Positions 1,168 through 32,000 of a stretch of 32,000 nucleotides of DNA are shown here, piece after piece. Below the pieces are notes generated by a model that saw only the letters and a program-made list of their open reading frames with translations, had not been told where the DNA came from and ran no database searches. Origin of the DNA: Opitutales bacterium (GTDB lineage Bacteria > Verrucomicrobiota > Verrucomicrobiia > Opitutales > PNEW01); contig CBDCNV010000002.1 in the NCBI GenBank assembly GCA_965219535.1, positions 1,440,001 through 1,472,000 of the forward strand. The letters run 5' to 3'. The position numbers were made by a program, and so were the translations under genes. Positions within the stretch are counted from its first letter, which is position 1, and each line of letters opens with the position of its first letter.

Positions 1168-1252
1168 GAGAGTGAACAGCCGTCGTCGCTTCGCTATGAC
1201 GTGCCAAGGTGAACAGTGAAAGAGCGCTTATGCGCGTGTTAAGTTTTAGGTG

Positions 1253-2648
1253 TTAAGTGTTAGGTTAGGGTCGGTACAACCAGGACATGGTTTACAGATT
1301 TAGATCAAGACATGGTTTACACTTTGTGAGGGATGCTGAACGGTAATCGGGTTATATAGTTAAGTTAATGTTATGCGGTTTTAGAGGTTTGGCTGGCATT
1401 GTTGGGGCCGCAAGCGGCCCCAATGAAAGCAGCCGTTGAAAGGTCAATCTGACCGATTCTGAGAGTGGCAAAGTAAACATCGAAGTGTACCGTGTCTAGT
1501 GGTTTTAGTCCAACGCTCCAACCGGCGAGGGCGGTGGAGATAGGAATCTGGAAGCCATCGAGTTTGATAGACCCGCTTTTTGAGACCCGGCGAGTCATCA
1601 AATCATAGCTGATATCGGCAGGAGTGCCACCGTAAGGATGAGAGCTGTGCTGATAGATTTCAGAGGGCGTGCTCATGGCAAGAGCCGCATGGGGGCGTTC
1701 TTCATTGAAGGTCTTGCGCCACAGATCGAAGGCCACCTGTTGGGTGCGAAGATCGTCCTGGGCATGTTTTTGCAACTCCTCTTTGATATCGCGATGGAGA
1801 CGCTCATGGGCACCGTTATCCTGGGGTTTACCCGGACGTCCACGCTCGAGATTGATCCCTAAGGCCAGCCACCAGGCCGCCAGTTTGCTCAGGCCCAGGA
1901 CCGCATTGGCACTGGCAAAGGGACTGCCGTTGTCGCTGCGGATGCAAGCGGGAAGTCCATAGCGTTCAAAGAGTTTTGTGAAGCATTCACGCACCGCTTC
2001 GCTACGGGCTGAACTGAGCACCCGCACCTCTAATACATAGCGGCTCCATTCATCCCGTACCGTCAAAGGTTCACAACGGTTGCCATCAACGGTGTGCCAC
2101 CACCCTTTGAAGTCTACGCTCCACACTTCGTTACAGCCACTGGCCTTGACGCTGCGGTAAAGGCGTCCGCTTTTTTGAGCGCTTCTGCGCCGACGCTTTT
2201 GCACCAGTCCCGCACGTTCCAAGACCCGTTTCACGCTCGAGTCTGAGGGGGCCTTCCCGTAACGCCTCTGGTAAAGCTCGCGGATCTTGTAGGGGCCCCA
2301 CGTCGGGTGATGATGCTTGAGTTTGATCAGCGTACATACTACTGATTCGGATAGTTCCTGAACACTTCCATGCGGTCGGCGTGAGCGCTCGTGCAACCCC
2401 TCCATCCCTTCGCTCAGGAAGCGCTTCTTCCATTTATACCCTGTCGGTCGGCTGATCCCGTAGTCTTCACACAGCTCGTTCATCTTTACTCCCGGTTGCA
2501 TCGATTCCAGGGCGAATTGGTATCTTTGGTCCATTTTATTTGTTTCCTTCCATGACATCATACCCCTTACTTAGCATCCTTCTTTCTTTGGCAATCTGTA
2601 AAGGATGTCCTGAACCTTTTGTGTAAAGAATGTCTTGAACCTATACCG
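1253..2648 (-). mobile_element. IS481-like insertion sequence, copy 1 (element proper probably 1272..2648)
   Basis: 1396-nt block identical by eye to 8513..9908 (offset 7260). Short terminal inverted repeat CGGTACA (1272) / TATACCG (2642-2648). Two subterminal ARGACATNNTTTACA boxes at each end. Single DDE transposase ORF. No target-site duplication discernible. Confidence 0.85.
1371..2561 (-). CDS. DDE transposase (HTH + rve/integrase-core), IS481-like
   Basis: 396-aa ORF. N-terminal HTH (ELCEDYGISRPTGYKWKKRF). DDE core WSVDFKG ... IRSDNGSPF ... NGAHERLHRDIK. Identical copy at 8631..9821. Confidence 0.85.
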   Translation of the reverse strand: MMSWKETNKMDQRYQFALESMQPGVKMNELCEDYGISRPTGYKWKKRFLSEGMEGLHERSRRPHGSVQELSESVVCTLIKLKHHHPTWGPYKIRELYQRRYGKAPSDSSVKRVLERAGLVQKRRRRSAQKSGRLYRSVKASGCNEVWSVDFKGWWHTVDGNRCEPLTVRDEWSRYVLEVRVLSSARSEAVRECFTKLFERYGLPACIRSDNGSPFASANAVLGLSKLAAWWLALGINLERGRPGKPQDNGAHERLHRDIKEELQKHAQDDLRTQQVAFDLWRKTFNEERPHAALAMSTPSEIYQHSSHPYGGTPADISYDLMTRRVSKSGSIKLDGFQIPISTALAGWSVGLKPLDTVHFDVYFATLRIGQIDLSTAAFIGAACGPNNASQTSKTA

Positions 2649-2695
2649 ATGTCGCTATCGGGTATCGGTATCGAAATCGAAATCGGTATTGGGTT

Positions 2696-2762
2696 GGAAG
2701 ATGTCGGGCTATACCCTCGGTATACCGTTCAGGGTGGAAGATGTCGAGATGCGCTCTCGGTA
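2696..2762 (-). repeat. two REP-like hairpin units, reverse orientation (2696-2722, 2736-2762)
   Basis: GGAAGATGTCG-N9-CTCGGTA twice, 40 nt apart. This is the reverse complement of the TACCGAG-stemloop-CGACATCYYCC unit seen at nine other sites. Confidence 0.8.
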
Positions 2763-2807
2763 CAGGGGAGTAGAGGAGAAAAGACAAGTCGAGAAATTAT
2801 CAAAAAG

Positions 2808-2873
2808 CTACCGAGGGCAAAGCCCGACATCCCCCAATCACTACCGAGGGCAAAGCCCGACATCCCCCAATTT
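2808..2873 (+). repeat. 33-bp tandem duplication carrying two REP-like hairpin units
   Basis: CTACCGAGGGCAAAGCCCGACATCCCCCAAT at 2808 and again at 2841 (period 33). Confidence 0.9.
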
Positions 2874-2990
2874 CAAATAATATCCAAGTTACAATTACTA
2901 AATAGCCAAACTGTCTTTTCGTTTATTTCATAAATTGGAATTTCCATCATTGGAATTTATTTGTGATTTGGTAATTGATGTTTGTTGCTT
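2868..2990 (+). repeat. ~125-bp AT-rich module, copy a
   Basis: CAA(T)TTCAAATAATATCCAAGTTACAATTACTAAATAGCCAAACTGTCTTTTCG...TTGGAATTTCCATCATTGGAATTTATTTGTGATTTGGTAATTGATGTTTGTTGCTT. Aligns along its length with 3680-3808 and 20939-21061. Confidence 0.85.
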
Positions 2991-3010
2991 TTAAATTCTA
3001 CGTTTGACCC
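2990..3010 (+). promoter_or_regulatory. conserved 21-nt upstream motif TTTAAATTCTACGTTTGACCC (copy 1)
   Basis: Exact 21-mer, 33 nt upstream of the GNAT ATG (3044) and in the same orientation as the gene. Confidence 0.5.
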
Positions 3011-3043
3011 GTTTCGACTTTCATGAAAGAGGATTATTGAAAG

Positions 3044-3592
3044 ATGAGATTGAAATCAAAGATCGGCGAGGAGTTTATTTTGCGCGAAATATCTGACTTA
3101 GATTCAGAACTACTTGGTCAATATTTCGAATCATTATCAGCTGAAACGCGAAGAAGGTATGGCCCGCATCCGTTCACAAAAGAAATTGCCGGTGAACTTT
3201 GCACAAGAAAGCATGACAGTGCTAAGAGATTTGTTCTCACTCTTGTGGATAACACACGTTTCGTTGGGTATTTCATTTTAGAATTTCAAATGCACAAAGA
3301 TTTACTAAATCGCTATAAAGAAGAGGGAATTGTTCTTACAGATGGCAAAAATCCGTTGTTTGCACCTTCGATTGCAGATGACTATCAAAATACTGGATTA
3401 GCATCATTAGCAATGCCAGGTCTCATCAAAGCCGCGAAAGATCTTGGCGCAAAAAGTTTAGTATTAATGGGCGGAACTCAAGCGACTAATAAAAGAGCAA
3501 TCGCGTTTTATAAAAAGTTTGGCTTTGTGCATGTTTGTGATTTTGAAAATAAGTCCGGTCTCAATTATGATATGTGGTTGAGATTAGGTTAG
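3044..3592 (+). CDS. GNAT family N-acetyltransferase
   Basis: 182-aa ORF, AAGAGG 11 nt upstream. Acetyl-CoA-binding-type motif QNTGLASLAM ... NKRAIAFYKKFGF. Confidence 0.7.
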   Translation: MRLKSKIGEEFILREISDLDSELLGQYFESLSAETRRRYGPHPFTKEIAGELCTRKHDSAKRFVLTLVDNTRFVGYFILEFQMHKDLLNRYKEEGIVLTDGKNPLFAPSIADDYQNTGLASLAMPGLIKAAKDLGAKSLVLMGGTQATNKRAIAFYKKFGFVHVCDFENKSGLNYDMWLRLG

Positions 3593-3653
3593 AGAGGTTT
3601 ACCGTTCAAGGTTCACGGTTGAAAGAATGTTTTATCCTTTAGGATCAATCCGC

Positions 3654-3680
3654 TACCGAGGGCAAAGCCCGACATCTCCC
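3654..3680 (+). repeat. REP-like hairpin unit
   Basis: TACCGAGGGCAAAGCCCGACATCTCCC, preceded by the leader CCTTTAGGATCAATCCGC (3636-3653). Confidence 0.8.
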
Positions 3681-3808
3681 AATCGCAAATCACAAATTTC
3701 AAATAATATCCAAATTACAATTACTAAATAACCAAACTGTCTTTTCGTATATTGGTATTTCCATAATTGGAATTTATTTGTGATTTGGTATTTGATTTTT
3801 TGGTGCTT
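3680..3808 (+). repeat. ~125-bp AT-rich module, copy b
   Basis: Aligns with 2868-2990 and 20939-21061. Has a small insertion (CGCAAATCACAAAT) near its start and a short deletion in the middle. Confidence 0.8.
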
Positions 3809-3817
3809 AGCCAGTTG

Positions 3818-5134
3818 TCAGCGCTCTTCTACATTTTGACTTTTTGACTTTTTGACCTTTTGACGCGCATGACGCGCATATTCGTGCGCCACCGGCACTT
3901 TGATATGTGCATTGATATCTTGCACGGATTCTGGATTTTCCTCCTCTTGCTTAAATCCCCACAGCGTGCGTGCATGAGCTGCTTCGGCCCGATCGAGCAC
4001 CGGCTGTTGCAAGGTGTCACGTTCATCGGGACAGAGATGCCGCATCAACGGTTGTAGTTCAGGGGGCAGGGCTTGATACTCTGCGTGGTTAAGCGGACGG
4101 CATACGTGGTAGACATTGTACTTGTCTCCCGGGGCGAAGTCGTCGACGGACAACCACCAGGGGCACCAGCGATTCACCACCGCAACCCTTTCCCGACCAC
4201 TTGGATTGTGCCTGGCAGTCGCGTGCCAGCAACGTGAATCCTGGATATAGACAGACCCCGCTGGCGCGGATACTTGCATATCGCCGGGAATGGGCGCGGA
4301 AACCGAAATACCATCGTTCGGACCCCGTGGATTCCGCTTGTCCTTATGCGAACCCGGCACGATCCACGTGCCCCCCGAATTTTCATCGACATCGGTTAGA
4401 TACCAGATCATCACCAGGCACATGGTTACGTCGGGGCAGGGCTGGCGGATGCAGCCGGTATTAAGATAGGGGTCTTTATTGCCGTAAGCTGAAAGGTCGT
4501 GGGGCCAGTCTGTGTGCCAGCCGCGCTTTTCCGAACCTCGCATTTTCTTGAATTCGTCTACTCCCTCATTCTCGATAAATGCATCGTCGTTCTTAATGTG
4601 TCGGGTATGCATCTGCGCGATTCGAATATGGTCATCGAGAACGTGGCGTGCCACAGCGGTAGTTACCGGGTTGGCGAGATGCCGGGCGTACTGGGGCATC
4701 CAGATAATAATGTCGGGAGGTTTGGGAGGATGCCCGACTTTGCGCACTCGCCTTAACTCCACGTTGTTTGCCGCGGCCTTGCCGCTGAGTAATTCCTCTG
4801 CGTTCGCACCCTCTTGATCAAACAGGTCTTTAATGCCCTGAATATTGCGTTTAGCAGTTTCATCTGCCGCCTTAACTTCTTCGCGAATGGCGTCCACCTC
4901 GTCAGATGGTATCACATGGTCGACGACACAGAAACCGTATCGATCGAGTGAATCGGCACAACCCGCTACCACATCCTCAACGGACATCTTTGCGGAATCG
5001 AATGCATAGGCTCGAGTGCGGATAAGGTCTGCACTGACGGCCTCAGGGTCGATGGCCGATGCCAGGAGATCGCGGGTCTCCTGCAGCTCACGTTCCAGGC
5101 GCTCTACATTGGATTGTAATTCATTGATATCCAT
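3818..5134 (-). CDS. phytanoyl-CoA dioxygenase (PhyH) family Fe(II)/2OG oxygenase with N-terminal coiled-coil-like extension
   Basis: 438-aa ORF. HxD motif in GWHTDWPHD and distal His in RCWHATARHN. The last ~20 codons (HARQKVKKSKSQNVEER) are encoded by the reverse (GGTCAAAA)n/GCGC repeat module. Confidence 0.75.
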   Translation of the reverse strand: MDINELQSNVERLERELQETRDLLASAIDPEAVSADLIRTRAYAFDSAKMSVEDVVAGCADSLDRYGFCVVDHVIPSDEVDAIREEVKAADETAKRNIQGIKDLFDQEGANAEELLSGKAAANNVELRRVRKVGHPPKPPDIIIWMPQYARHLANPVTTAVARHVLDDHIRIAQMHTRHIKNDDAFIENEGVDEFKKMRGSEKRGWHTDWPHDLSAYGNKDPYLNTGCIRQPCPDVTMCLVMIWYLTDVDENSGGTWIVPGSHKDKRNPRGPNDGISVSAPIPGDMQVSAPAGSVYIQDSRCWHATARHNPSGRERVAVVNRWCPWWLSVDDFAPGDKYNVYHVCRPLNHAEYQALPPELQPLMRHLCPDERDTLQQPVLDRAEAAHARTLWGFKQEEENPESVQDINAHIKVPVAHEYARHARQKVKKSKSQNVEER

Positions 5135-5154
5135 TTTAATCGCTGGAGTGGATT

Positions 5155-5197
5155 AAAAGGTCAAAAGGTCAAAAAGTCAAAAGGTCAAAAAGTTGAC
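5155..5197 (+). repeat. (GGTCAAAA)n tandem array
   Basis: AAAAGGTCAAAAGGTCAAAAAGTCAAAAGGTCAAAAAGTTGAC. Reverse copies at 3834-3864 and 24907-24930. Short copies at 10171-10188 and 10221-10233. Confidence 0.9.
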
Positions 5198-5226
5198 GCC
5201 AAACACTGACGCGAGTGTTTTAATTC

Positions 5227-5266
5227 AGTCTAAAGTCAAAGGTCTAAGGTCGAAGGCGGGGAGGGG
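5227..5266 (+). repeat. AGTCTAAAGTCGAAGGTCGAAAGTCGAAAGCGGGG-type module
   Basis: One of seven copies: 5227-5266, 6844-6878, 9973-10008, 20848-20888, 30188-30220, 31467-31498, and reverse 17688-17715. Confidence 0.9.
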
Positions 5267-5332
5267 AAGTGAAAAATGAAAAGTGAACAGTGAGAGAGTT
5301 GCGTATAATATTTAACGGAGTTTATTATATTT

Positions 5333-5385
5333 CCCTGAACCCTGAACCCTGAACCCTGTACCGAGAGCGTAGCTCGACATCTTCC
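5333..5385 (+). repeat. (CCCTGAA)n array fused to a REP-like hairpin unit
   Basis: CCCTGAACCCTGAACCCTGAACCCTG followed by TACCGAGAGCGTAGCTCGACATCTTCC. The mirror-image arrangement is at 22398-22438. Confidence 0.85.
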
Positions 5386-5429
5386 AACCCTACACCTGAT
5401 GCTCTTCCGTTAGGATCAATCGACAATCG

Positions 5430-5456
5430 TACCGAGGACGAAGTCCGACATCTTCC
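5430..5456 (+). repeat. REP-like hairpin unit
   Basis: TACCGAGGACGAAGTCCGACATCTTCC, preceded by the leader TCCGTTAGGATCAATCGAC (5406-5424). Confidence 0.8.
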
Positions 5457-5480
5457 AAATCGAAAATCGGCAATCGATGG

Positions 5481-6350
5481 TCACGATGGTGGCTTAAAGC
5501 GTCGGTTGCGGGAAGCTGTTGTCGCACCACCGGATTCTGGCCAGGGACCTCCAAGGTGTCCCTCAGACCGGAGGGGCATGGCGGCATTGCCTGCGATGTG
5601 GTTCCAGGTTCTTACCCGGAGATCATGGTCGGTCCCGTACTCATTCCTGGAAAGTGTCGACGGGTGTTCGTTATCTAAGCGCACCCGCACATCGGGAATA
5701 TTCCCGGCGTCGTGATCCCAGGACGGTTCAGTATTCTCCTCGGTTCTCGAGTAGAGGAACTTGAACATGTAGCGCACCCGGTCGCTTCGGTTGCCCGTGC
5801 CCGCATGCCAGATGTCGTAATGAGTCAGGAGGACAGAACCGGCGTTGACCGTCGAAAACACCTGGCCTTTTAAATTCACAAGCGTGACCATAGTTTCAGG
5901 CGCAGCAACGCGCCTCTGACTGCCCGGCAGCAACACCGTGGGCCCCATGTCTTCAGTTACGTCCTGTGGATAATACATTAGCATCACGTGTTTGATGTGA
6001 TCGATATCCCTGTCCTGGTGACCCCTCCCGAAACGCTCGTCCTGGTGCCAGGGCTGGGCGCGTGTTTTGGGAGGGTTCATGTGAATGTGTCCACCCGGAT
6101 CTTTGAAGAAGCCCGGACCGAGCAGGCTGGTTAATGCACCGACGACCGAGGGGTGCTCCAGTACTACCGAGATTTTTGGCAATGCCTCGACGATACGCTC
6201 ACCTGGGTTTTCGGGCATCTTTCGGAGGCTATCACAGATCTCATCGTTGTAACCCGAAGGCAGATCTGGCTCGACGATGTGATACCCGCTGATGATGAAC
6301 GAAGCGACCTCGTCATCATTTAACAGGTTCGAGTTGTTACTTCTATTCAT
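5481..6350 (-). CDS. phytanoyl-CoA dioxygenase (PhyH) family protein
   Basis: 289-aa ORF. PWHQDERF (HxD) and DIWHAGTGNRS (distal His). Its start overlaps the stop of the upstream small ORF by 8 nt. Confidence 0.75.
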   Translation of the reverse strand: MNRSNNSNLLNDDEVASFIISGYHIVEPDLPSGYNDEICDSLRKMPENPGERIVEALPKISVVLEHPSVVGALTSLLGPGFFKDPGGHIHMNPPKTRAQPWHQDERFGRGHQDRDIDHIKHVMLMYYPQDVTEDMGPTVLLPGSQRRVAAPETMVTLVNLKGQVFSTVNAGSVLLTHYDIWHAGTGNRSDRVRYMFKFLYSRTEENTEPSWDHDAGNIPDVRVRLDNEHPSTLSRNEYGTDHDLRVRTWNHIAGNAAMPLRSEGHLGGPWPESGGATTASRNRRFKPPS

Positions 6351-6612
6351 CGATATCCACTAACTGATCCAGAATGAACTCGTAGCCGAACACGCCGACC
6401 GCTTCTGGATCGACATCCGCTCGCTGGGCCGGGAAGCTGACTACCCGCCAGCCGTCCAGAATGGCACCGTGCACGGTCTCGTATGGCATCTCTATGCCGG
6501 CTTCGATCTGTGGGGCATCAGACTCCACAGGTTCGTGGACGGCAAATCCAACGACGGGGGCTCTCAGGCTCCTCGATACGGCGTTCAAATAGAGAATTCT
6601 CTGTCGTTTCAT
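6343..6612 (-). CDS. hypothetical small protein (89 aa), possibly translationally coupled to the PhyH gene
   Basis: ORF with balanced, non-repeat composition. It ends ...GATGAATAG, which contains the ATG of the next gene. No recognisable motif. Confidence 0.45.
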   Translation of the reverse strand: MKRQRILYLNAVSRSLRAPVVGFAVHEPVESDAPQIEAGIEMPYETVHGAILDGWRVVSFPAQRADVDPEAVGVFGYEFILDQLVDIDE

Positions 6613-6654
6613 GAGGACGGATTACTCACTCAATCATGACCGGAATATGACAAG

Positions 6655-6675
6655 GGGTCAAACGTAGAATTTAAA
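6655..6675 (-). promoter_or_regulatory. conserved 21-nt upstream motif (copy 2, reverse strand)
   Basis: Exact reverse complement of TTTAAATTCTACGTTTGACCC, 42 nt upstream of the start at 6612 and oriented with that minus-strand gene. Confidence 0.5.
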
Positions 6676-6713
6676 GAGCGCTGACATAGCGCTGACGCGC
6701 GTGTTAAGTGTTA

Positions 6714-6757
6714 GGTATCGGTATCGAAATCGGGATCGAGTATCGAAATCGAGTATC
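6714..6757 (+). repeat. ATCGNN hexamer array
   Basis: GGTATCGGTATCGAAATCGGGATCGAGTATCGAAATCGAGTATC. Other arrays at 2661-2689, 9906-9925, 10095-10141 and 15029-15072. Confidence 0.9.
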
Positions 6758-6921
6758 CCTTCGACTGCGCTCAGGGCAGGCGGGTGTCAGGATTTAGTAA
6801 ACAGTGAACAGTGAAAGAGCGCTGACGCGCGTGTTTTAAAATTAGTCTAAAGTCGAAGGTCAAAAGTCGAAAGCAGGGAAGAATCTAATACATAGCCTGA
6901 CTTCATTTGAGTTTCTTGACA

Positions 6922-6942
6922 TTTAAATTCTACGTTTGACCC
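6922..6942 (+). promoter_or_regulatory. conserved 21-nt upstream motif (copy 3)
   Basis: Exact 21-mer, 92 nt upstream of ATG 7035. Followed by CTTTTCCCCTTACC. Confidence 0.5.
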
Positions 6943-7034
6943 CTTTTCCCCTTACCATTTTTATACCCCTAAACATTTCGATGATAAACGCATTCTGTAT
7001 GAGAAGTGTGAATCGTTCGCTAGAGATCTAACGC

Positions 7035-8444
7035 ATGTATACTCCTATCTGGATTAAGATCCCGGCAGGTAAATTTTGGATGGGTAGTGATCCAGCGGGC
7101 GATGTCGTACCTTACGAGAACGAAATCCCGAGACATCGGGTGCATGTCGATGAATTTCAGCTCGCACGTACGCACGTAACGAATGCTCAATACGCAGAAT
7201 TCGTCAGGAAATCCGGTTATCAAGCGCCTGGGCATTGGCTGAATGGAAAAATTCCTGAGGGCCTATCCGATCATCCGGTCACCTATGTTGACTGGCACGA
7301 TGCCCTGGCATTTTGTCAGTGGGCAGGTGTGCGACTGCCAACTGAAGCCGAATGGGAGAAGGCTGCGCGCAGCGACGATGCGCGGCTCTGGCCCTGGGGC
7401 AATCATCCACCCGATGCTCACCGTTGCAATTTTGCCAAACATATCTTTACAACCAGCCCGGTACACACATTTCTTCAGAGCGCCAGTCCGTATGGTGCAT
7501 TGGACATGGCCGGCAATGTCTGGGAATGGACAAGCAGCCTTACCCGCGCGTATCCATACAATAAGAATGACGGTCGAGAAAATCCAGCATTGGGTGAATC
7601 ACGAATTGTACGTGGCGGATCCTACACGCATGACGCACGCAATATTCGTGCTGCTGATCGGCACTCTTTTGTGCCCGGTACGAGAGGAGTATATCTCGGT
7701 TTTCGCGTTGCTCGCACGAGTCCTTCGAGAACCACGCGCTTAACTTTTGAGTGGGTCGATATTCCTTCGGGCGAATTTCAGATGGGCAACGATACGCGTG
7801 TCTTTCACGATCTGGCATTACCCAATGAATGCCCCTACCACGAGATTTCGTTAGAGGAATTTTATATAGCTCAGACACCGGTCACCAACGCGGAATATGA
7901 AAAGTTTGTGCGCGCTACCAATCATTTAGTCCCTGCTCATTGGATCGAAGGCGACATTCCACAAGGAAACGAAAATCATCCCGTGACGAATGTATCCTGG
8001 GACAGCGCTCAGGATTTTTGTGAATGGGCAAATGTACGTTTGTCAACCGAAGCGGAATGGGAAATGGCAGCACGAGGTCCAGGTTTGGGAAACGTGCGTG
8101 TTTATCCATGGGGCGACGAAATACCGCAAGAACCATGTGCAAATTATGCACGGGATGTAAAAACACATTCAACAACACCGGTCGATCAATTCCCCGGTGG
8201 CGCAAGTCCGTACGGCGTATACGACATGGCAGGTAATGTATGGGAGTGGACGAGCAGTGTGTTAGCGGACTATCCGTACTGCATCAATGATGGGCGCGAG
8301 GATTTAATGTCGCGCGCACACCGGGTATTGCGTGGGGGATCGTTTTACAGTCCGAGTGAAAGTTATATCCGTTGTGCAGCGCGCAGTTCGAGTTATCCAC
8401 AGCGCCGACGCGATCATATCGGATTTCGCATTGCAAAAAAGTAG
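7035..8444 (+). CDS. tandem double FGE-sulfatase-fold (SUMF1/EgtB/PvdO-type) domain protein
   Basis: 469 aa with two homologous halves (about aa 5-228 and 240-468). Each half has the motifs NE.P.H.V, VTNA.Y..F, HPVT.V.W, EAEWE.AAR, SPYG..DMAGNVWEWTS, RGGS and GFR(V/I)A. Confidence 0.8.
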   Translation: MYTPIWIKIPAGKFWMGSDPAGDVVPYENEIPRHRVHVDEFQLARTHVTNAQYAEFVRKSGYQAPGHWLNGKIPEGLSDHPVTYVDWHDALAFCQWAGVRLPTEAEWEKAARSDDARLWPWGNHPPDAHRCNFAKHIFTTSPVHTFLQSASPYGALDMAGNVWEWTSSLTRAYPYNKNDGRENPALGESRIVRGGSYTHDARNIRAADRHSFVPGTRGVYLGFRVARTSPSRTTRLTFEWVDIPSGEFQMGNDTRVFHDLALPNECPYHEISLEEFYIAQTPVTNAEYEKFVRATNHLVPAHWIEGDIPQGNENHPVTNVSWDSAQDFCEWANVRLSTEAEWEMAARGPGLGNVRVYPWGDEIPQEPCANYARDVKTHSTTPVDQFPGGASPYGVYDMAGNVWEWTSSVLADYPYCINDGREDLMSRAHRVLRGGSFYSPSESYIRCAARSSSYPQRRRDHIGFRIAKK

Positions 8445-8512
8445 CCAACACAGATGAAGGGGAGAAGCGCTGACATAGCGCTGACGCATCAGCGCGTGTT
8501 AAGTGTTAGGTT

Positions 8513-9908: not shown

Positions 9909-9972
9909 GTATCGAAATCGGGATCCCTTCGACTGCGCTCAGCGCTCAGCGCTGGCGCGCGTGTTTTAAAAA

Positions 9973-10008
9973 AGTCTAAAGTCGAAGGTCGAAAGTCGAA
10001 AGCGGGGG
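9973..10008 (+). repeat. AGTCTAAAGTCGAAGGTCGAAAGTCGAAAGCGGGGG module
   Basis: See 5227-5266. Preceded by the GC core AGCGCTCAGCGCTGGCGCGCGTGTT (9941-9965). Confidence 0.9.
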
Positions 10009-10018
10009 AAGAATTCAG

Positions 10019-10060
10019 TGAACAGTGAACAGTGAACAGTGAACGGTGAACAGTGAAAGA
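10019..10060 (+). repeat. (GTGAACA)n heptamer array, about 6 units
   Basis: GTGAACAGTGAACAGTGAACAGTGAACGGTGAACAGTGAAAG. Shorter runs at 1209-1220, 5281-5293, 6797-6817 and 17613-17620. Confidence 0.9.
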
Positions 10061-10094
10061 GCACTGATACGCGTGTTAAGTTTTAAGTATTAGA

Positions 10095-10141
10095 TATCGG
10101 AATCGAAATCGGAATCGGGATCGGTATCGAAATCGGGATCC
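10095..10141 (+). repeat. ATCGNN hexamer array
   Basis: ATATCGGAATCGAAATCGGAATCGGGATCGGTATCGAAATCGGGATC, followed by CCTTCGACTGCGCTCAGCGCTGACGCGCG. Confidence 0.9.
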
Positions 10142-10188
10142 CTTCGACTGCGCTCAGCGCTGACGCGCGTCAAAAGGTCAAAAAGTCA

Positions 10189-10218
10189 CCAGCCGTCGCC
10201 AAGGCTATGGCCGGCAAG
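10189..10218 (+). repeat. 30-mer CCAGCCGTCGCCAAGGCTATGGCCGGCAAG
   Basis: Exact second copy at 31591-31620. Reverse or degenerate copies at 30550-30583, 17740-17761, 31925-31947 and 1177-1208. Confidence 0.9.
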
Positions 10219-10821: not shown

Positions 10822-10823
10822 TA

Positions 10824-22537: not shown

Positions 22538-22964
22538 TGTCTTTATTTATATTTATCTGCTATTTTTTTACGCTGACTGTCGTTGATTTCACATATTGAC
22601 ACTTCAGCGCGATTCGTCGCAAGTATACAACGCGTATGACTTTCACCTATTGACCCTGTGCCAGCGACGAGAATCTTTTTTTTAGCTGCTATCATAAATC
22701 AATTACTCCTATAAGAAAAGAGCATCCGTAAGTTCTCTCATCAGCCAAGAGAAACGTTTGGGCTTCAGGGGAAAAACAAAAGAGATCATCCTCCATTTTT
22801 AAAGTATGAAGAGCACATTCATTGAACCGTAAGACTAGATAAATCGGTTTAATATTTCAAAGTGGGTTATAATAGAATTAATAACAAAACAATCTTCTCA
22901 TTTATCATGGGGTGCCTTTAGAATTATCCTTTCTATAAACATAATGAATATTAAAATATGAGGG

Positions 22965-24803: not shown

Positions 24804-24946
24804 CTCTGTCCCTGACCAAAGAACATGCCCTCCCAGGTTTCGTGCCTGGAAGGACGCTTACGATCGTCAGTGTTTATAACGTTACCTGACCCCTTTTGAA
24901 TTTCTATATTTTGACCTTTTTGACGTTTTGACGCTCGCTAGCGCCT

Positions 24947-25834: not shown

Positions 25835-26352
25835 TATTGGCTCCCTTATAGGAGCAAGACTGTATACTTATCTTAGGAATAAGGTAGAAAAAAATGAAGC
25901 AACATATACAAGAAAGAAGATTAGAAAGAAGACAAGGGGGTTGTCATCTTTTGATTGCTTACTAGTAAATCAAAAAATTCGCAGTCTGACCCCATTTGCG
26001 GTTTCTATAATGTCAGAATGCAGAGCCTGACCCCTTTTGCTTTATCGACCCCTTTTGCTTTATCAAGTGGAGAGAGAATTAATCATGTCGATCATATTGT
26101 ATATTGGGTTTCATGAAATTGGTAGATTTGACTCCCTTCTAGCCTTTTTTCAATCCGCTTTCCGCAATCGAATGATTGCACTTATTAGTTTAATTGAACA
26201 TTAAGTCATATTTAATTAAAATCTTTTACTATTGTAGTTGAACAATGTAAAAGTAGTACGTCCTTGTATCGATGTATATTAAATATTGAATTTAAGTAAC
26301 TACCAACCTGGACCTCTTTTATACAAACCAGAATAGATGAATCTATCATGTA

Positions 26353-27339
26353 ATGGCAGATCCGGTATATGATGATAAAAATCGCCGTTGGGATATCTTC
26401 CGATTAGTTGCGCCGTGGTTCGGTCGTACAGTAACTTCTAGGTTTCTTCAAAATACATCTGAATATATTCCAGGAGTAGAGCGTATTCATCACTTAATCA
26501 GAGGGAGCTACAAACCAGCTTGGACAGATTTTCCTTTAGCAATCCAGATTACGCATAGTGGGCAGTACGAAGATAAAATAAGTTATGCCAAAGATGGTAT
26601 GTGGAGAGTCTATTATAGTCCAGAAGCTGGTCCATTAGATGACTGGCAAAACGCATCACTATTTAAACTCATTCAATATGGAGAACCGGTAATTGTGACA
26701 AATCGCATATCGGACAAAACAGACCATAGGGGGGCTAGACATCATATTATGGGGTTAGGTCTTTTTCAAAGTTTCGATGAAAATCTGCATTCTTTTTTGG
26801 TTCAAGGTGCTGGTTTTGATATGCTTCAGCAGGTTATTGGATCTACAATCAATGATGAACTTTTAGATACAGCATTGCGATTAGAAGCACTCGAAGCTTG
26901 GGTTCCTTTTATAGAAGAAGGTAAGTCCATCTATAAATTATCTGCTGAAAAAAGAGATAACGCCTTTAGAGGTGTTATATTAGATAACTATTGTAATACC
27001 TGTGCTGTAACAGGACAGCGATTCCATTTTGGAGATAACATTGAAGCAGAAGCTGCCCATATTATTAGTAAATATAAACGGGGGACTGATGATCCACGTA
27101 ACGGAATTGCATTATCACGCTCTGTTCATTGGGCATTTGATAAAGGTATTTTTACAATCTCAGACCAATATGAAATCGTGATACACCCTCGTTCGTGTGA
27201 AGCTAATTATCAACAATTCTCTTTAATGAATTTAGATCGTAAACGATTAACTTTACCTGAAGATGATTATTATTTTCCTCATCCTGAAGCTCTAAAATGG
27301 CATCGCGATAATAAATTCGGTGAGTTTTTAATAAGTTGA
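26353..27339 (+). CDS. candidate modification-dependent (type IV-like) nuclease: SRA/PUA-like N-terminal region + HNH_2-type C-terminal nuclease
   Basis: C-terminus: CNTCAVTGQRF...IEAEAAHIISKY...DPRNGIALSRSVHWAFDKGIFTI (HNH_2-type pattern). N-terminus: GSYKP...LAIQITHSGQYEDK...WRVYYSPEAG...NASL...EPVIVTNR, which parallels the SRA/YDG motif order. Confidence 0.6.
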   Translation: MADPVYDDKNRRWDIFRLVAPWFGRTVTSRFLQNTSEYIPGVERIHHLIRGSYKPAWTDFPLAIQITHSGQYEDKISYAKDGMWRVYYSPEAGPLDDWQNASLFKLIQYGEPVIVTNRISDKTDHRGARHHIMGLGLFQSFDENLHSFLVQGAGFDMLQQVIGSTINDELLDTALRLEALEAWVPFIEEGKSIYKLSAEKRDNAFRGVILDNYCNTCAVTGQRFHFGDNIEAEAAHIISKYKRGTDDPRNGIALSRSVHWAFDKGIFTISDQYEIVIHPRSCEANYQQFSLMNLDRKRLTLPEDDYYFPHPEALKWHRDNKFGEFLIS

Positions 27340-27516
27340 GATTGGTAATGAATAAAACATTCTGAATTGCTGTGACGCTGAGCTTCTCAAATGACTGTGT
27401 GAAAAGAGCGACGTCAATAGATTCTGTCAGCGACTAGTCAGGTTAAGTCTGAAATCCTGGGCGAAATATAAACACCTGATTACCGAACGTGGCTTTTACA
27501 GTGTATAATTAATAGT

Positions 27517-28251
27517 GGGTCATGCCTAGAACAGAGGGTATCTTAAGCACATATTAAGGATGTTACGATGGAGGTTTTGATGACGATGGTTAAAGCGATA
27601 TTCAGTTTCTTTGAGGTGCAGTTGGAAGGTCCTACGAGAAAGACCTTTGAACTTAGCCAATCGAAGTTTAGCAAAAGCCCAAAAAGATTCAATCCCGTTA
27701 ATGTGGGAGTGTCCCTGGGCAAACTCGTTGTCGTTGTGATTGACACGGTAATGCTTCTTATAGCCCAGATCCACGAGGCCGTTGTAAGCACGCCACCCGT
27801 CAGAATAAAGCACACTGTCAAAAGTAACTCTCCCTTGGATCACCGCATGCAGAGCGGCTCTGGAGACGTTGCGTACAACCTGGGTATAGACTTTCCCATT
27901 ACGCTTGAGCAACCCGAAGACGGGCACTTTCTTGAATGCACCCCGACCTCTTTGCCCTGGAATTCTTTTGCCTCCAAAGTAGGACTCATCCATTTCCACC
28001 GACCCCCTAAAAGGCGAGGCCTGCGCACATTGCTGCAACAAACGCTCCCGCAACAAGCGCAAATAACGGTTGACCGTGTTACGATTCAATCCTGTCAATT
28101 GGGCTATCTTCAACGCTTCCATATCCAAGCTAAAACACTTTACTAACTGCCGAAATTTGGCCTCAGAAATTTTTGAACGATGTACATACTTATTTCTCAT
28201 TTGTCTAGAATAGCTTACACATCTGATATGTGTCTATTCTAGGCATGACCC
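27517..28251 (-). mobile_element. IS1595-family insertion sequence (735 bp)
   Basis: Perfect 15-bp TIRs GGGTCATGCCTAGAA (27517-27531) / TTCTAGGCATGACCC (28237-28251). 8-bp direct target duplication TTAATAGT (27509-27516 and 28252-28259). Confidence 0.9.
27526..28200 (-). CDS. IS1595-family (ISXO2-like DDE) transposase
   Basis: 224 aa: VEMDESYFGGKR...GRGA..KVPVFGL, YSDGWRAYNGL, YRVNHNDNEF...HINGIESFWAFAK, ETEYRFNHR. Confidence 0.9.
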   Translation of the reverse strand: MRNKYVHRSKISEAKFRQLVKCFSLDMEALKIAQLTGLNRNTVNRYLRLLRERLLQQCAQASPFRGSVEMDESYFGGKRIPGQRGRGAFKKVPVFGLLKRNGKVYTQVVRNVSRAALHAVIQGRVTFDSVLYSDGWRAYNGLVDLGYKKHYRVNHNDNEFAQGHSHINGIESFWAFAKLRLAKFKGLSRRTFQLHLKETEYRFNHRHQNLHRNILNMCLRYPLF

Positions 28252-28276
28252 TTAATAGTTAATAAATTAAAGTAAT

Positions 28277-29173
28277 ATGAAAAATAACAAAATCGTCAAA
28301 TCACTCCTGCAGGATCTTAATTCATATGTATATTCTAGATCAATGACATCATTAAAAAAGGGGAGATACTTAAGTGCATGTATACGTTCATCTTTTGTTA
28401 AGACATATGAATTTATTGATTTAGCGTTTCGTAAGTTGTCGCAAGAACATGCTTTTTTTCTTGTCACGAATCTTCGAGGAATTACAGAGGATCTTATTTA
28501 TTTACGATTTATGACTACGCTAAATCTCAATGATAGAGATAATATGATTGAAGGGCTCATGGTCCTTGAAGTTTTTAATAACATATCTCATCAAAATAAA
28601 TTTTTTTGCAAATTTAGACCATTTCAACCTGTCCTTAACAATGTTCCATCTAATAATCTTATCGATAAAACGAGGCTAAAGATCCAAAAAATATGGCGAC
28701 AGAACGGCTGGCCAAATTTACAATCAAATTATACTTCTCCTCCTACTCGACAAATTGCTGAACGGACCGACCCTAATTATATGGAGATTATCTATGATTA
28801 CATATTCCGGCTCACTTCAGATACTGTACATTTTAAACCTGGAATATTACTAAGATCTGGTTGGGGGCCATCCAAAAGCATGACTAAATTCACAACCTCT
28901 AACATGTCGCGCTATTATTTCGCATTTTCTAGAATATATGGAATCTTTCTTTTCACACTGTATTTTGAATTTTTTCCAAGATTTCTTAAACCGGGCGATC
29001 GGATTCAAGGCAAAGTAGAGCAGCTGCGTGAATTAATTTTGCGAGAACAACGTTGGCCGGAAATGGTAACTTTTGAGGAAATGAATCAAGCTGTTCCTAA
29101 GAAAAACATTATTCAATTTTTAATACAATCAATCTATACTTTAGAATACAAATCGGGATTTTTTAATAAGTAA
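28277..29173 (+). CDS. hypothetical protein (298 aa), AT-rich islet
   Basis: Uninterrupted ORF in ~25-35 % GC DNA, where random ORFs of this length are unlikely. The ATG lies 25 nt after the IS1595 right end. No confident motif. Confidence 0.5.
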   Translation: MKNNKIVKSLLQDLNSYVYSRSMTSLKKGRYLSACIRSSFVKTYEFIDLAFRKLSQEHAFFLVTNLRGITEDLIYLRFMTTLNLNDRDNMIEGLMVLEVFNNISHQNKFFCKFRPFQPVLNNVPSNNLIDKTRLKIQKIWRQNGWPNLQSNYTSPPTRQIAERTDPNYMEIIYDYIFRLTSDTVHFKPGILLRSGWGPSKSMTKFTTSNMSRYYFAFSRIYGIFLFTLYFEFFPRFLKPGDRIQGKVEQLRELILREQRWPEMVTFEEMNQAVPKKNIIQFLIQSIYTLEYKSGFFNK

Positions 29174-29369
29174 ATGATCCATATCATGTTTCCTACCTTT
29201 TTTTAATTGGAAATTATTGAATAATGATTAGCCCCCATTATCCCGCCGTAGCTGAACTCTAAATCCAGTACCCTACAAACATTCCATTGAATAACTTGAC
29301 AATCTTTGGATGGGGACGTAGGCCAAACGGTTTTCTGATACACATTTATAACCGCAAAGAAAGACTCGT

Positions 29370-30167: not shown

Positions 30168-30311
30168 GGCGCGATAGCGACTGCGCGCGTCTAAAGTCGA
30201 AGGTCCAAAGTCGAAAGCCGAAGAAGAGGGATAGCCACAAAAGGCACAAAAGGCGCAAAGAAGAGTTTTGAACCGCGGATATCGCAGATATGCGCGGATG
30301 TTGATTTAGAT

Positions 30312-30480
30312 CAGGTGAAACACGGTTCTTGATCTCAATGTCATCCCTCCTGCATTTGCAGGATGGATTGACTACGGCTATTCCCTAGCGCTTTTTTAAA
30401 ATGTAATTTTAAAAAACGCGTAGGAAAAATCCGACACTCAGCTAGCTGAGTTATTGCGATCATGCACCGAGTTTCACCTG
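30312..30480 (+). repeat. 169-bp multi-hairpin palindromic element, copy 1 (MITE-like or structured RNA candidate)
   Basis: 28-nt termini CAGGTGAAACACGGTTCTTGATCTCAAT / ATTGCGATCATGCACCGAGTTTCACCTG are inverted repeats with 4 mismatches. Three internal hairpins. Same length and architecture as 31721-31889. Confidence 0.85.
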
Positions 30481-30733
30481 AGCTTTCTCCCCGTTCTTCC
30501 CGAACTTCCTGTAAAAAATCTCTTTTCTTTTTATGTGTCTCTTGTGCCTCTTGCCTGCCGGCCATAGCCTTGGCGACGGCTGGTGGCCAACAATCTTAAC
30601 TTTTTTTTTATCGGCGTTCATCCGCGTTATCAGCGATTAATTCTTTTCGTTCTTCCTGTGTTTCCTGTTAAAGTTTTTTATTTTTGTTTTTTATCTTTCT
30701 CTAATATCCTTCGCTAATTAGTTTAGAGATCAG

Positions 30734-31480
30734 ATGAATCAGATCGAATTACCTCAAAGTGAAAAATTTCATTTATTTCTCCTTGCTGGCCAGTCAAACA
30801 TGGCGGGCAGGGGCTTGCTTGAGGAAGAGGATACTAATCCTCACCCGCGGGTCCTGACAATAACGAGAGATGGAGATTGGGTTCCGGCAGTGGATCCTAT
30901 CCACTTCGATAAGCCGAATAAGGGAGTTTGCCTTGGCAGAACATTCGGCATTGAGGTTGCAGAACAGGATCCGGATATCGTGGTCGGCCTCATCCCCGCT
31001 GCCTGTGGCGGCTCTCCCATTTCTACCTGGCAGCCCGGTATGTATTTTAAGGCGACGGAAAGTCACCCCTACGACGACGCCATCCAAAGAACGAAAAGAG
31101 CGATGGAGGATGGCGAGTTAAAAGCCATTCTCTGGCATCAGGGAGAGACCGATGCACGGGAGCCAGATCTCTCCACAATTTATGAAAAAAAACTGCGCCG
31201 ATTAATTGTGCGATTCAGAGACGACCTCAACAGCCCGAATCTGCCCTTCATCATCGGTCAAATGGGCCAATTTCTGGGTAGCGAGTTTGATCGCGACGGA
31301 CTCGTCAATGAAGCCCACGTTAAGATAGCAAAAGAAGATGACAACTCCACCTTCGTCCCCTCCGATGGTCTGGGCTGCCTAAGCGACAACGTCCATTTCG
31401 ACGCCAAAGCATTACGCGAGTTCGGACATCGGTACGCGGAGGTGTATTTGCGTATACGCAAATACGTGTCTAAAGTCTAA
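30734..31480 (+). CDS. sialate O-acetylesterase-like (SASA/DUF303) SGNH-type esterase
   Basis: FHLFLLAGQSNMAGRG nucleophile motif, ACGGSPISTW, ILWHQGETD, NVHFD. The final codons and the stop lie within the GTCTAAAGTCTAAGGTCC repeat module. Confidence 0.75.
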   Translation: MNQIELPQSEKFHLFLLAGQSNMAGRGLLEEEDTNPHPRVLTITRDGDWVPAVDPIHFDKPNKGVCLGRTFGIEVAEQDPDIVVGLIPAACGGSPISTWQPGMYFKATESHPYDDAIQRTKRAMEDGELKAILWHQGETDAREPDLSTIYEKKLRRLIVRFRDDLNSPNLPFIIGQMGQFLGSEFDRDGLVNEAHVKIAKEDDNSTFVPSDGLGCLSDNVHFDAKALREFGHRYAEVYLRIRKYVSKV

Positions 31481-31590
31481 GGTCCAAAGTCGAAAGCGAA
31501 GAGCGCTCTCGCGCGGGGAGAAAGAGGGAATAGCCACAGCATTAAATGAAGATTTATGAATGATGAATGCAGAATGGAGAGGGATAGCCA

Positions 31591-31620
31591 CCAGCCGTCG
31601 CCAAGGCTATGGCCGGCAAG
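31591..31620 (+). repeat. 30-mer CCAGCCGTCGCCAAGGCTATGGCCGGCAAG (exact second copy)
   Basis: Identical to 10189-10218. Confidence 0.9.
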
Positions 31621-31720
31621 CAAGAGGCACAGAAGGTACAAGAGGGATAAGAATAAATTTAACCACGAATGAACACGAATCGACACGAATAAAAGAGAGA
31701 AGAAATAGTAGTAACAAAGT

Positions 31721-31889
31721 CAGGTGAAACACGGTGCTTGATCTCAATTACATCTCACCCGTATCTACGGGAGCGATGTTACGGCTATTCCCTAGCGCTT
31801 TTTTAAAATGTAATTTTAAAAAAGCGCGTAGGAAACATCCGACACTCAGCTGTGCTGAGTTATTGCGATCAAGCACCGTGTTTCACCTG
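31721..31889 (+). repeat. 169-bp multi-hairpin palindromic element, copy 2
   Basis: Termini CAGGTGAAACACGGTGCTTGATCTCAAT / ATTGCGATCAAGCACCGTGTTTCACCTG pair at 27 of 28 positions. Internal hairpins CCCGTA-TC-TACGGG, GCGCTTTTTTAAAAT-GTA-ATTTTAAAAAAGCGC and CTCAGC-TGT-GCTGAG. Confidence 0.85.
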
Positions 31890-32000
31890 AGCTTAGTCCT
31901 ATTTCATTTATTTTTTGCCTAGCAGCCATAGCATTGGTGACGGTTGGTGTCCTACAACCTTAATTATTCATTTTATCGGCGTTCATTCGCGCTATCCGCG

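Follow-up and report, generated by a model that had tools for sequence, protein, structure and literature searches.

Intergenic DNA built from short tandem repeats has been described in several groups of bacteria. Long simple sequence repeats and short tandemly repeated repetitive sequences (LSSRs/STRRs), among them TAACTGA and GGGAATC arrays, consist of head-to-tail units of 5-11 nt, mostly heptamers, are intergenic and vary among close relatives (PMC4679880, PMC4692102); heptamer LSSRs have been attributed to slippage (Mrazek 2007, as cited in PMC4679880). For the GGGAATC and GGGGAYT heptamers of Xanthomonas and Nostoc, Rehm et al. reported a proximity rule, the closer open reading frame (ORF) lying on the 5′ side of the array whatever the ORF's own orientation (PMC4692102). 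In Nostocaceae, small dispersed repeats (SDRs) are nested in tandem heptamers (Elhai et al. 2008, as referenced by PMC5861425, PMC3116915 and PMC4390886); going by the description in these citing papers, they are modules of 21-30 nt with precise ends that sit inside heptamer arrays or other repeats, without target duplication and with no enzyme known. Among HIP1-rich cyanobacteria, no SDRs turned up in families other than the Nostocaceae (PMC5861425). The bacterial interspersed mosaic elements (BIMEs) of enterobacteria and the BOX elements of pneumococci combine few module types in partly fixed order and variable number, have palindromic potential and are targeted by insertion sequence (IS) elements (works referenced in PMC3116915). 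Here we describe the intergenic spacers of a 32,000-nt stretch of a marine Opitutales bacterium of the Verrucomicrobiota (contig CBDCNV010000002.1, positions 1,440,001 to 1,472,000, hereafter the window), which share features with each of these systems.

A sequence-only reading of the window had taken most of its spacers for a mosaic of one shared vocabulary of short tandem-repeat modules. The modules in fact form at least four nested layers of differing nature, and the implied novelty was overstated because the kind is described in other bacteria, as heptamer LSSRs/STRRs, TAACTGA repeats, Nostoc SDRs and BIME/BOX elements. What is new is the phylum, a directed grammar of multiple array families, the restriction of the repeats to genomic islands, a covarying 175-nt element without an Rfam entry, and how widely the polarity rule applies. 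On balance, we think that selfish or neutral repeats have accreted layer by layer in these spacers, which are weakly constrained parts of islands; of the options raised earlier, the evidence favours a dispersed family of non-autonomous elements, given the clean nested insertion, units bounded by terminal inverted repeats, use of both orientations at other loci, and wholesale turnover. Protein-binding arrays and transcribed structured spacers, the other two options, would be rivals; structure finds support in just the M9 hairpin and the 175-nt element.

The window was compared with OY829953.1, a complete 4.49-Mb chromosome of an 'Opitutales bacterium' whose syntenic genes are 91-96% identical to those of the window and thereby place it in Verrucomicrobiota, and with about 330 kb of further DNA from the same organism or population, taken from the European Nucleotide Archive (ENA) assemblies ERZ25072670 and ERZ25067264. 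Enzyme searches covered about 400 kb of lineage DNA and counts of module order 13 lineage loci; sampled loci carry L numbers below. BLAST of the window against itself gave 73 high-scoring segment pairs, nearly all between spacers. Intra-window repeats cover 41.7% of the 6,828 non-IS intergenic bases versus 2.25% of coding bases, and tandem arrays occupy 896 bases of spacer and 190 of coding sequence. Since 14 of the 23 spacers have at least 20% repeat coverage, it was fair to speak of 'most' spacers. All modules lie far above what shuffled sequence gives. Two consecutive GTCNAAR units (GTCNAARGTCNAAR) match 20 times against 0.01 expected, and a GCGC-rich, quasi-palindromic core, GCGCTGAYGCGCG, occurs 7 times (0.08 expected); the hairpin module M9 (CCGAG, a 4-bp hairpin, then CGACATC), which the sequence-only reading did not list, occurs 12 times (0.13 expected). 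Tandem Repeats Finder (TRF) reports units of 6, 7, 8 and 9 nt at essentially every position where arrays had been placed, and the spacers of the AT-rich islets have no repeat coverage, as had been noted.

Metagenome assembly, the source of the window, and the error-proneness of low-complexity repeats might suggest an assembly or sequencing artefact, a possibility to which we attach next to no probability. Assemblies L033 and L034 match window positions 1-9907 at 99.6-99.9% identity with zero array-length differences, so that three independent assemblies carry the same arrays and agree base for base in every one of them over 9.9 kb; the same families recur in the independent complete chromosome OY829953.1 and in metagenome contigs of the Joint Genome Institute (JGI). 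The vocabulary recurs in relatives. The layout is not that of a clustered regularly interspaced short palindromic repeat (CRISPR) array or of IS termini, both of which had rightly been set aside: units of 6-9 nt are contiguous, with no unique spacers between them, the sole 33-nt repeat (2808-2871) is an abutting doublet, and no cas genes were found among the window ORFs, ten of which were scanned with Pfam and which encode catabolic enzymes, transposases and an HNH protein instead. Rfam 15 gave nothing at or above the gathering threshold on the window, and a tRNA scan gave nothing relevant.

The first layer consists of tandem arrays of the families GTGAACA, GTGTTAR, ATCGNN, GTCNAAR, GGTCAAAA, CCCTGAA, CACAAAAGG and AATCNNN; the GC core belongs to the second layer, described below. 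As in LSSRs/STRRs, head-to-tail units, here of 6-9 nt, extend beyond chance length in non-coding DNA, and between the window and OY829953.1 both the number of units and the array family change in orthologous spacers. Unlike in those systems, at least seven families co-occur in directed order around a GC core, host nested inserts and are regional. In the following list of the main array blocks, A1 stands for GTGAACA, A3 for GTGTTAR, A4 for ATCGNN and A5 for GTCNAAR arrays, and M4b for CCCTTCGACTGCGCTCAG.

1209-1265, plus strand: compound unit (GTGAACA)n, GC core, (GTGTTARGT)n, abutted by an IS481 end at 1270/1271 (TRF, self-comparison)
2652-2689, plus strand: ATCGNN hexamer array, the remaining half of the target that IS copy 1 divides (TRF)
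2869-2990, plus strand: AT-rich module of about 120-150 bp, with further copies at 3695-3808 and 20940-21074 (self-comparison)
3834-3864, minus strand: (GGTCAAAA)n array overlapping the 3′ end of a PhyH gene (TRF)
5155-5293, plus strand: (GGTCAAAA)n, core-like stretch, (GTCNAAR)n and AAGTGAA array, in this order (TRF)
8466-8530, plus strand: doubled GC core and GTGTTARGT array, abutting IS copy 2
9908-10170, plus strand: A4-M4b-core-A5-A1-core-A3-A4-M4b-core, one full turn of the higher-order unit; 9905-10015 is an imperfect palindrome (z = -4.3)
14983-15072, plus strand: core, GTGTTARGT array and ATCGNN array, beside an IS481 fragment (15234-15448)
17612-17663, plus strand: A1 remnant, core and GTGTTARGT array, 12 nt off the start of the neighbouring gene
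20823-21239, no single strand: core, A5, M9 (20915-20935), AT-rich module, M9 (21117-21137), reversed GTGTTARGT array (21186-21215) and reversed core
24907-24933, minus strand: reversed GGTCAAAA-type array, 14 nt off the stop of the neighbouring gene (TRF)
30168-30260, plus strand: core-like stretch, (GTCNAAR)n and CACAAAAGG 9-mer array, an 'empty site' for the insert M8 (TRF)
31468-31496, plus strand: (GTCNAAR)n array that provides the stop codon of a SASA gene (TRF)

Module order had been called partly fixed, and the same-strand adjacency counts show it to be directed. GTGAACA is followed by the core six times and GTGTTAR follows the core 14 times, neither ever in the opposite order; the core precedes GTCNAAR seven times (opposite order once), and GTGTTAR precedes ATCGNN five times (opposite order never). 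ATCGNN is followed by CCCTTCGACTGCGCTCAG twice, CCCTTCGACTGCGCTCAG by the core twice, and GTCNAAR by GTGAACA three times. These adjacencies close into a cycle that makes up the second layer, a higher-order unit of about 230 bp with the order core-GTCNAAR-GTGAACA-core-GTGTTAR-ATCGNN-CCCTTCGACTGCGCTCAG-core, which is complete at 9908-10170 and present as two tandem copies in a relative (L012 6640-7240). The predominance of the plus orientation holds only inside the window; at other loci of the same organism both strands are used.

The segment ATCGNN-M4b-core-GTCNAAR folds as an imperfect palindrome (z = -4.3) because CCCTTCGACT complements a GTCGAAGG unit. Pairing of GTGAACA and GTGTTAR arrays as arms around the core was ruled out, A1-core-A3 being unfolded (z = -0.44). 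Sigma-70 promoters and intrinsic terminators were also rejected as a role for the modules, the site counts being the same as in shuffled sequences. Arrays enter the 3′ ends of genes at 3818-3864 and 31468-31496, where they supply the C-terminal residues of the PhyH protein (...KVKKSKSQNVEER) and the SASA stop codon, which lies within GTCTAAAGTCTAAG; stop-free arrays in other phyla give spurious long ORFs (L017).

The third layer comprises two small inserts, M8 and M9, that sit inside the arrays:

1179-1208, plus strand: diverged M8-type hairpin module within a GTGAACA array (compared with the M8 family)
2700-2864, no single strand: four M9 copies (CCGAG-GGGC NNA GCCC-GACATC), at 2700-2720 and 2740-2760 (minus) and at 2811-2831 and 2844-2864 (plus), the last two forming a 33-nt tandem
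3656-3676, plus strand: M9
5333-5452, plus strand: (CCCTGAA)n with M9 at 5361-5381 and a second M9 at 5432-5452 within an AATCGNN array; the orthologous array of a relative holds M8
10165-10232, plus strand: (GGTCAAAA)n array cut in phase by M8 (10189-10218)
10327-10347, plus strand: M9
17691-17762, minus strand: reversed (GTCNAAR)n, with an M8 variant at 17733-17762 within an AATCNNN array
22397-22439, minus strand: M9 and (CCCTGAA)n array directly at a gene start
30554-30583, minus strand: M8 within a reversed 9-mer array
31591-31620, plus strand: M8 in a CACAAGAGG 9-mer array, a 'filled site'

M8 is the 30-mer CCAGCCGTCGCCAAGGCTATGGCCGGCARG, of which 23 distinct copies were found; the 30-mer named by the sequence-only reading has further, diverged copies at about 1179-1208, 17733-17762 and about 31922-31951. 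At 10189-10218 it cuts a GGTCAAAA unit exactly and in phase (GTCA, M8, AAAG), and it also interrupts 9-mer, AATCNNN, GTGAACA and GTGTTAR arrays, five families in all, in every case facing the same way with respect to the array that hosts it and without target duplication. Homologous elements are known with and without the 30-mer. Its hairpins are weak (z = -0.8 to -1.7). M9, about 28 nt long and present in 41 copies, lies within CCCTGAA or AATCGNN arrays, and inverted M9 pairs are present at 2700-2864. Its 4-bp stem has the compensatory variants GGGC/GCCC, GAGC/GCTC and GGAC/GTCC; 93.5% of alignment cells are paired and 7 cells changed on both sides. None of 500 shuffles equalled the observed pairing, both-side changes or covariation score, and slid controls reached at most 52% pairing. 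In the orthologous arrays 3′ of the gene PhyH2, the window holds M9 and its relative M8. As short dispersed modules with sharp ends, nested in arrays and without target duplication, M8 and M9 resemble SDRs as the citing papers portray them; they differ in belonging to Verrucomicrobiota, in measuring 28-30 nt, in occupying 7-, 8- and 9-nt arrays and in being limited to accessory islands. A comparable nesting was seen in a Bacteroidales metagenome-assembled genome (MAG; Candidatus Enterocola, L015 28-70), where a hairpin insert of about 33 nt, GTTGTAGGGACGAACGGCTCGTGCGTCCGCGGTT, breaks a GTCNAAR array.

The fourth layer is made of structured elements with terminal inverted repeats, which are listed with a further hairpin of the window:

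6652-6945, plus strand: unit core-A3-A4-M4b-A1-core-A5 bounded by GGGGTCAAACGTAGAATTTAAA repeats at 6652-6675 and 6922-6945 (z = -7.8); solo repeats at 2990-3013 and 10824-10847
30311-30486, plus strand: 175-nt element, copy 1 (fold z = -8.4)
31720-31894, plus strand: 175-nt element, copy 2
18663-18695, plus strand: terminator-like hairpin GGGTCAG...CTGACCCCTTTT (self-comparison)

Both 30311-30486 and 31720-31894 had been counted among the short-repeat modules; they are instead copies of one 175-nt element, absent from Rfam, with 11 copies in the sampled DNA. Its terminal inverted repeats form a 27-bp closing stem around three internal hairpins (fold z = -8.4), and 18 of its 61 pairs show compensatory changes; none of 500 shuffles equalled the observed compensatory pairs, changed cells or covariation score. 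A second unit is bounded by the perfect 24-bp inverted repeat GGGGTCAAACGTAGAATTTAAA; relatives have a 130-bp version, whereas the one at 6652-6945 reaches 294 bp, having been filled with modules of the second layer. Both are short, non-coding, multicopy and bounded by terminal inverted repeats, in the manner of MITEs (miniature inverted-repeat transposable elements), and both share hairpin folds and dispersed intergenic copies with MITEs and with REPINs, the hairpin-forming doublets of repetitive extragenic palindromic (REP) sequences. In contrast to these, the flanks of the 175-nt element show no consistent target-site duplication, and no autonomous IS with matching ends was found in the sampled DNA, the terminal repeats of IS481 and IS1595 being different; moreover, three internal hairpins with compensatory changes are more typical of a structured RNA or a single-stranded DNA intermediate. 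With BIME and BOX elements the spacers share a small set of module types, partly fixed order, variable number, palindromic potential and IS targeting; they differ in that the modules are themselves short tandem arrays; no sequence homology to those elements was found, nor was a REP-associated tyrosine transposase (RAYT) in the DNA sampled.

A search for such a co-distributed enzyme, which had been proposed, matched no IS200/RAYT-type gene in about 400 kb of lineage DNA in tblastn with an IS200 TnpA sequence. A MAG of the Fimbriimonadaceae carries a 150-aa IS200/RAYT-like Y1 transposase gene with long flanking inverted repeats (L016 1839-2291, minus strand), 2.4 kb from inverted GTCGAAA arrays; we consider it unrelated, no link with the arrays having been established. 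The window also has a perfect 28-bp hairpin between an A run and a T run at 22467-22541 (z = -13). Half copies of its arm (..CTGACCCCTTTTG) recur near gene ends and at the edges of AT-rich inserts, for example at 26009-26045, and the hairpin at 18663-18695 is related. Rfam scores 22467-22541 as mir-5595, a microRNA family of C. elegans (PMC13048549), at 45.9 bits against a threshold of 100; this assignment was rejected, and the feature is just a long perfect hairpin.

An IS481-family element forms part of the same landscape:

1271-2649, minus strand: IS481-family copy 1, transposase gene at 1371-2561, ends GGTATAGG...GTTGTACC
8531-9907, minus strand: IS481-family copy 2

With their immediate flanks (1232-2666 and 8492-9925) the two copies share 99.5% identity; a fragment of 215 bp is present at 15234-15448. 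Because 1271-2649 and 8531-9907 are IS copies, two of the spacers delimited by the sequence-only reading, 2649-3043 and 9909-10425, partly begin at IS ends. The transposase is 100% identical as a protein on 8 contigs. In five distinct flank contexts (the window, L019-L021 at about 9,910-11,290, and L033 at 12873), a reversed GTGTTAR array is found 0-25 bp away from the transposase-distal end of the element; IS elements are likewise reported to target REP/BIME units, with IS1397 entering BIME palindromic units, in works referenced in PMC3116915. A target-site duplication is not definable from six copies. Haplotypes that are otherwise 99.9% identical part exactly at the IS end at 9907/9908. Nearby, a chimeric ORF at 15012-16442 joins a D-2-hydroxyacid dehydrogenase gene, a 69-bp exact direct duplication (15448-15516 = 15553-15621), the 215-bp fragment of the transposase gene (15234-15448) and the array block 15002-15072.

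It is important to point out that the repeats are not a general trait of the spacers of this genome; they are regional and belong to accessory islands. Module tokens per kb of spacer number 7.6 in the window, 8.3 in L019, 4.5 in L020, 4.3 in L042, 3.6 in L035 and 2.1 in L021, versus 0-0.6 in L036/L040, in L037/L039 (ribosomal-protein and histidine operons) and in L038, L041, L043 and L044; L039, L040 and L042 are all parts of a single 486-kb contig. Rich and poor loci contrast in the same manner when TRF arrays of any 6-9-nt unit are considered. Module-rich loci have a GC content of 47-50% and carry genes of accessory catabolism (PhyH dioxygenases, sulfatases, glycoside hydrolases, Gfo/Idh/MocA oxidoreductases, SBP_bac_5), versus 42-45% GC in module-poor core loci. 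Composition within the window is patchy: one PhyH gene in 21233-22399 reaches up to 68% GC, and AT-rich islets at 26050-29340 and 12404-13776, with 33-39% GC, encode an HNH endonuclease, an IS1595 element and a DUF5677 protein. Because the GC content of core loci in the same organism is about 42%, the island genes of 50-60% GC, rather than the AT-rich parts, may be the compositional outliers. Locus L042 (ERZ25072670 ctg256139, 386-407 kb) has about ten genes for PhyH-family dioxygenases inside 20 kb with module-bearing spacers between them, the window having four, which suggests a lineage-specific PhyH expansion tied to repeat-rich islands.

Turnover of the spacers was followed in relatives. 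Eleven JGI metagenome contigs that carry M9 derive from relatives whose genes in common with the window are 76-96% identical, and they use the same vocabulary. Spacers are identical between haplotypes of 99.9% identity and rebuilt wholesale in relatives at 91-96% gene identity: the GNAT/PhyH spacer, for instance, measures 225 bp in the window versus about 600 bp in a relative, with wholly different modules. In two of two orthologous spacers, a shared core leads into GTGTTAR in the window and into GTCNAAR in the relative. Synteny with the relative at 91-96% identity spans about 5.5 kb, and contig L027 joins genes found at 21.7, 5.5, 29.3 and 31.4 kb of the window. At L007 ~2430-3215 (OY829953.1 ~2,002,430-2,003,215), an AT-rich insert of 790 bp with small ORFs follows exactly after a TTTGACCC motif, where the window runs straight on at 6945, a clean presence/absence difference. 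Carriage by phages is unsupported, because the A1-core junction pattern GTGAAAGAGCRCTGAYRCGCGTG had no match in JGI metagenomes and the GTCNAAR pattern none in viral contigs.

Array orientation follows a rule, the same as that reported by Rehm et al. (PMC4692102). When arrays of five families are read along their purine-rich strand, 76 have the nearest ORF on the 5′ side and 18 on the 3′ side; the rule applies to convergent and divergent spacers as well as to both tandem types, and was replicated 16:4 in loci that were fetched later and independently. A test blind to family took every TRF array with units of 6-9 nt and at least three copies and oriented it by an excess of G over C. The G-rich strand runs 5′ to 3′ away from the nearest ORF by 93:30 in the lineage (p = 1e-8) and, once the family through which they were found is removed, by 15:2 in loci of other phyla (p = 0.002); in all, the rule was seen in Verrucomicrobiota, Bacteroidota, Chloroflexota, Acidobacteriota and Armatimonadota. 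The geometry is telomere-like, with the G-rich strand running from the gene outward. Arrays next to a start codon lie further from the ORF (median 39-122 nt) than those next to a stop codon (21-42 nt). ORF calling was rejected as the cause, since arrays that extend over ORF 3′ ends obey the rule too (8:2) and few are hidden in lineage ORFs, as was proximity to stop codons, since the rule also applies where the ORF on the 5′ side presents its start (14:7). Transcription-linked mutation bias was dismissed on theoretical grounds, as start-adjacent arrays should then have a skew of opposite sign.

The GTCNAAR family itself reaches far beyond the lineage. The exact 27-mer GTCTAAAGTCGAAGGTCNAAAGTCGAA was found in 18 loci, versus a chance expectation that we calculate at about 3e-4 in 596 Gb; its hosts are Opitutales, other Verrucomicrobiota, Bacteroidales, Flavobacteriaceae, Cyclobacteriaceae, Chloroflexota, Acidobacteriota and Armatimonadota. 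It is intergenic in every clear case, and the same two unit positions are variable. In MAGs from at least five phyla (L001-L018), (GTC-N-AA-R)n arrays sit beside the ends of genes. Spacers of Acidobacteriota (L017) and Bacteroidales (L004) are mosaics of successive heptamer families that converge from both sides on a centre.

Taken together, we lean towards a model of layered accretion of selfish or neutral repeats. Arrays of 6-9-nt units would arise and change length through slipped-strand mispairing, and whole or partial units of about 230 bp may spread among nearby spacers. At shared GCGC cores, unit halves would be swapped through ectopic recombination, gene conversion or template switching, with the mosaic as the result. 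The arrays would serve as landing pads for the M8 and M9 hairpin inserts, and the structured elements bounded by terminal inverted repeats (175 nt and 130-294 bp) as well as IS481 would insert in or beside the same arrays. Accumulation only in accessory catabolic islands could reflect the tolerance of long, weakly constrained spacers for repeats that presumably have no host function; the outcome would be fast spacer turnover and a shuffling of gene order with breakpoints in the spacers. Several observations weigh against this model. No Y1/HUH or IntI-like gene was found in about 400 kb of lineage DNA, no target-site duplications were seen, and no insertion polymorphism of M8 or M9 was present among the 99.9% haplotypes, so that their current activity is unproven. 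A neutral or selfish model does not predict the GC-skew polarity, which hints at selection or a polar generating mechanism, and the conservation of unit positions across phyla (GTC-N-AA-R) suggests a constraint.

The polarity would find a ready explanation if the arrays were polar insulators of transcription and translation, a role that we regard as unlikely. RNA read from an array towards the gene would be C-rich, G-poor and pyrimidine-rich, with neither Shine-Dalgarno-like sequences nor AUG/GUG decoys; it would therefore suit Rho loading or S1 binding and might shield genes from read-in and antisense transcription, or tune leaders. The counts for the lineage, for other phyla and for the replication, together with the validity of the rule in all four spacer types, speak for such a role, as does the greater distance of start-adjacent arrays, which leaves room for a promoter. 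The proximity rule for G-rich heptamers of Xanthomonas and Nostoc (PMC4692102) and a role of S1, Csp or CsrA proposed for TAACTGA repeats (PMC4679880) point the same way. Insulators should hardly be replaced wholesale between relatives with 91-96% identical genes, however, nor be missing from core operons of the same chromosome, and the arrays are short, at 20-45 nt. Cyanobacteria, which are not known to have Rho, follow the same polarity rule. Alternatively, the spacers could be recombination sites of an integron-like gene-cassette system, which we hold to be distinctly improbable. Nearly all modules are co-oriented over the 32-kb window, the genes are single and functionally unrelated, with 34-68% GC, synteny with the relative of about 5.5 kb breaks in spacers, L027 joins distant genes of the window, AT-rich genes are inserted beside a GACCCC(T)n motif, and modules are found only in accessory islands. 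The attC core-site consensus of integrons is GTTRRRY (complement RYYYAAC), which GTGTTARGT units fit; GTGTTAAGT and GTGTTAGGT units contain GTTAAGT and GTTAGGT at 1236-1265, 6701-6716, 8496-8526, 15002-15031 and 17634-17663. This fit is probably a coincidence, since neither an integrase nor a paired site architecture was found: an IntI search detected no integron integrase in about 400 kb, its one weak match being a generic phage integrase in module-poor L038, and no R″/R′ pairing was seen, A1-core-A3 being unfolded as stated above. By a rough estimate, a chance fit to GTTRRRY among about seven families has a probability of about 0.2. Mixed orientations at other loci also conflict with a cassette system, and part of the rearrangement is plainly IS-mediated.

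Two further proposals take up the regularity of the units. Cooperative binding of DNA-binding proteins, as by ribbon-helix-helix proteins on heptads, which would organise the nucleoid or repress island genes, fits the alternation of fixed and free unit positions (GTC-N-AA-R, GTGTTA-R) in a pattern common to several phyla, and the direct and inverted arrays beside gene starts. It is hard to reconcile with at least seven unit families of periods 6, 7, 8 and 9 nt, which occur just as often at stop codons and in convergent spacers and are not kept at orthologous positions; no candidate binder was identified, and we give the proposal very little credence. Still slighter is the chance that the arrays are scars of polar repeat addition at 3′ ends, by which a slipping polymerase, a primase-polymerase or a reverse transcriptase would extend both ends of a DNA segment before joining, as in telomere healing. 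The geometry is exactly telomere-like, on either side of a gene and for any gene orientation, arrays abut or overlap ORF ends, unit families drift (GTCGAAG to GTCGCAG to GTCTCAG in L017), and arrays occur only in islands of apparently acquired genes. Yet most window genes have arrays on one side only, and the fixed module order and shared cores indicate the copying of pre-formed units rather than de novo synthesis. No enzyme of this sort was seen here, and we know of none in bacteria. A joint reading, in which 3′ DNA ends are extended with repeats by a polar activity of telomere-like kind when gene segments join into islands and the arrays then become landing pads for hairpin mobile elements of 26-30 nt with a novel mode of insertion without target duplication, is a long shot, if a shade less so than protein binding.

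Heptamer arrays and tiny modules nested within them have been known for decades in cyanobacteria and few other groups. The spacers also matter in practice: they are hotspots of rearrangement and IS insertion, and they create false long ORFs and C-terminal extensions in annotation. The contrast between repeat-bearing islands and a repeat-free core offers a natural control within one chromosome, and relatives at 99.9%, about 94% and about 80% identity provide a graded series for timing spacer turnover. The polarity rule, which applies to any unit family and extends to five further phyla, is testable on any complete genome and constrains every model of the origin or function of such arrays. Finally, with SDR-like modules now in a second, unrelated phylum, a comparison of gene content between Nostocaceae and Opitutales could pinpoint the enzyme involved.

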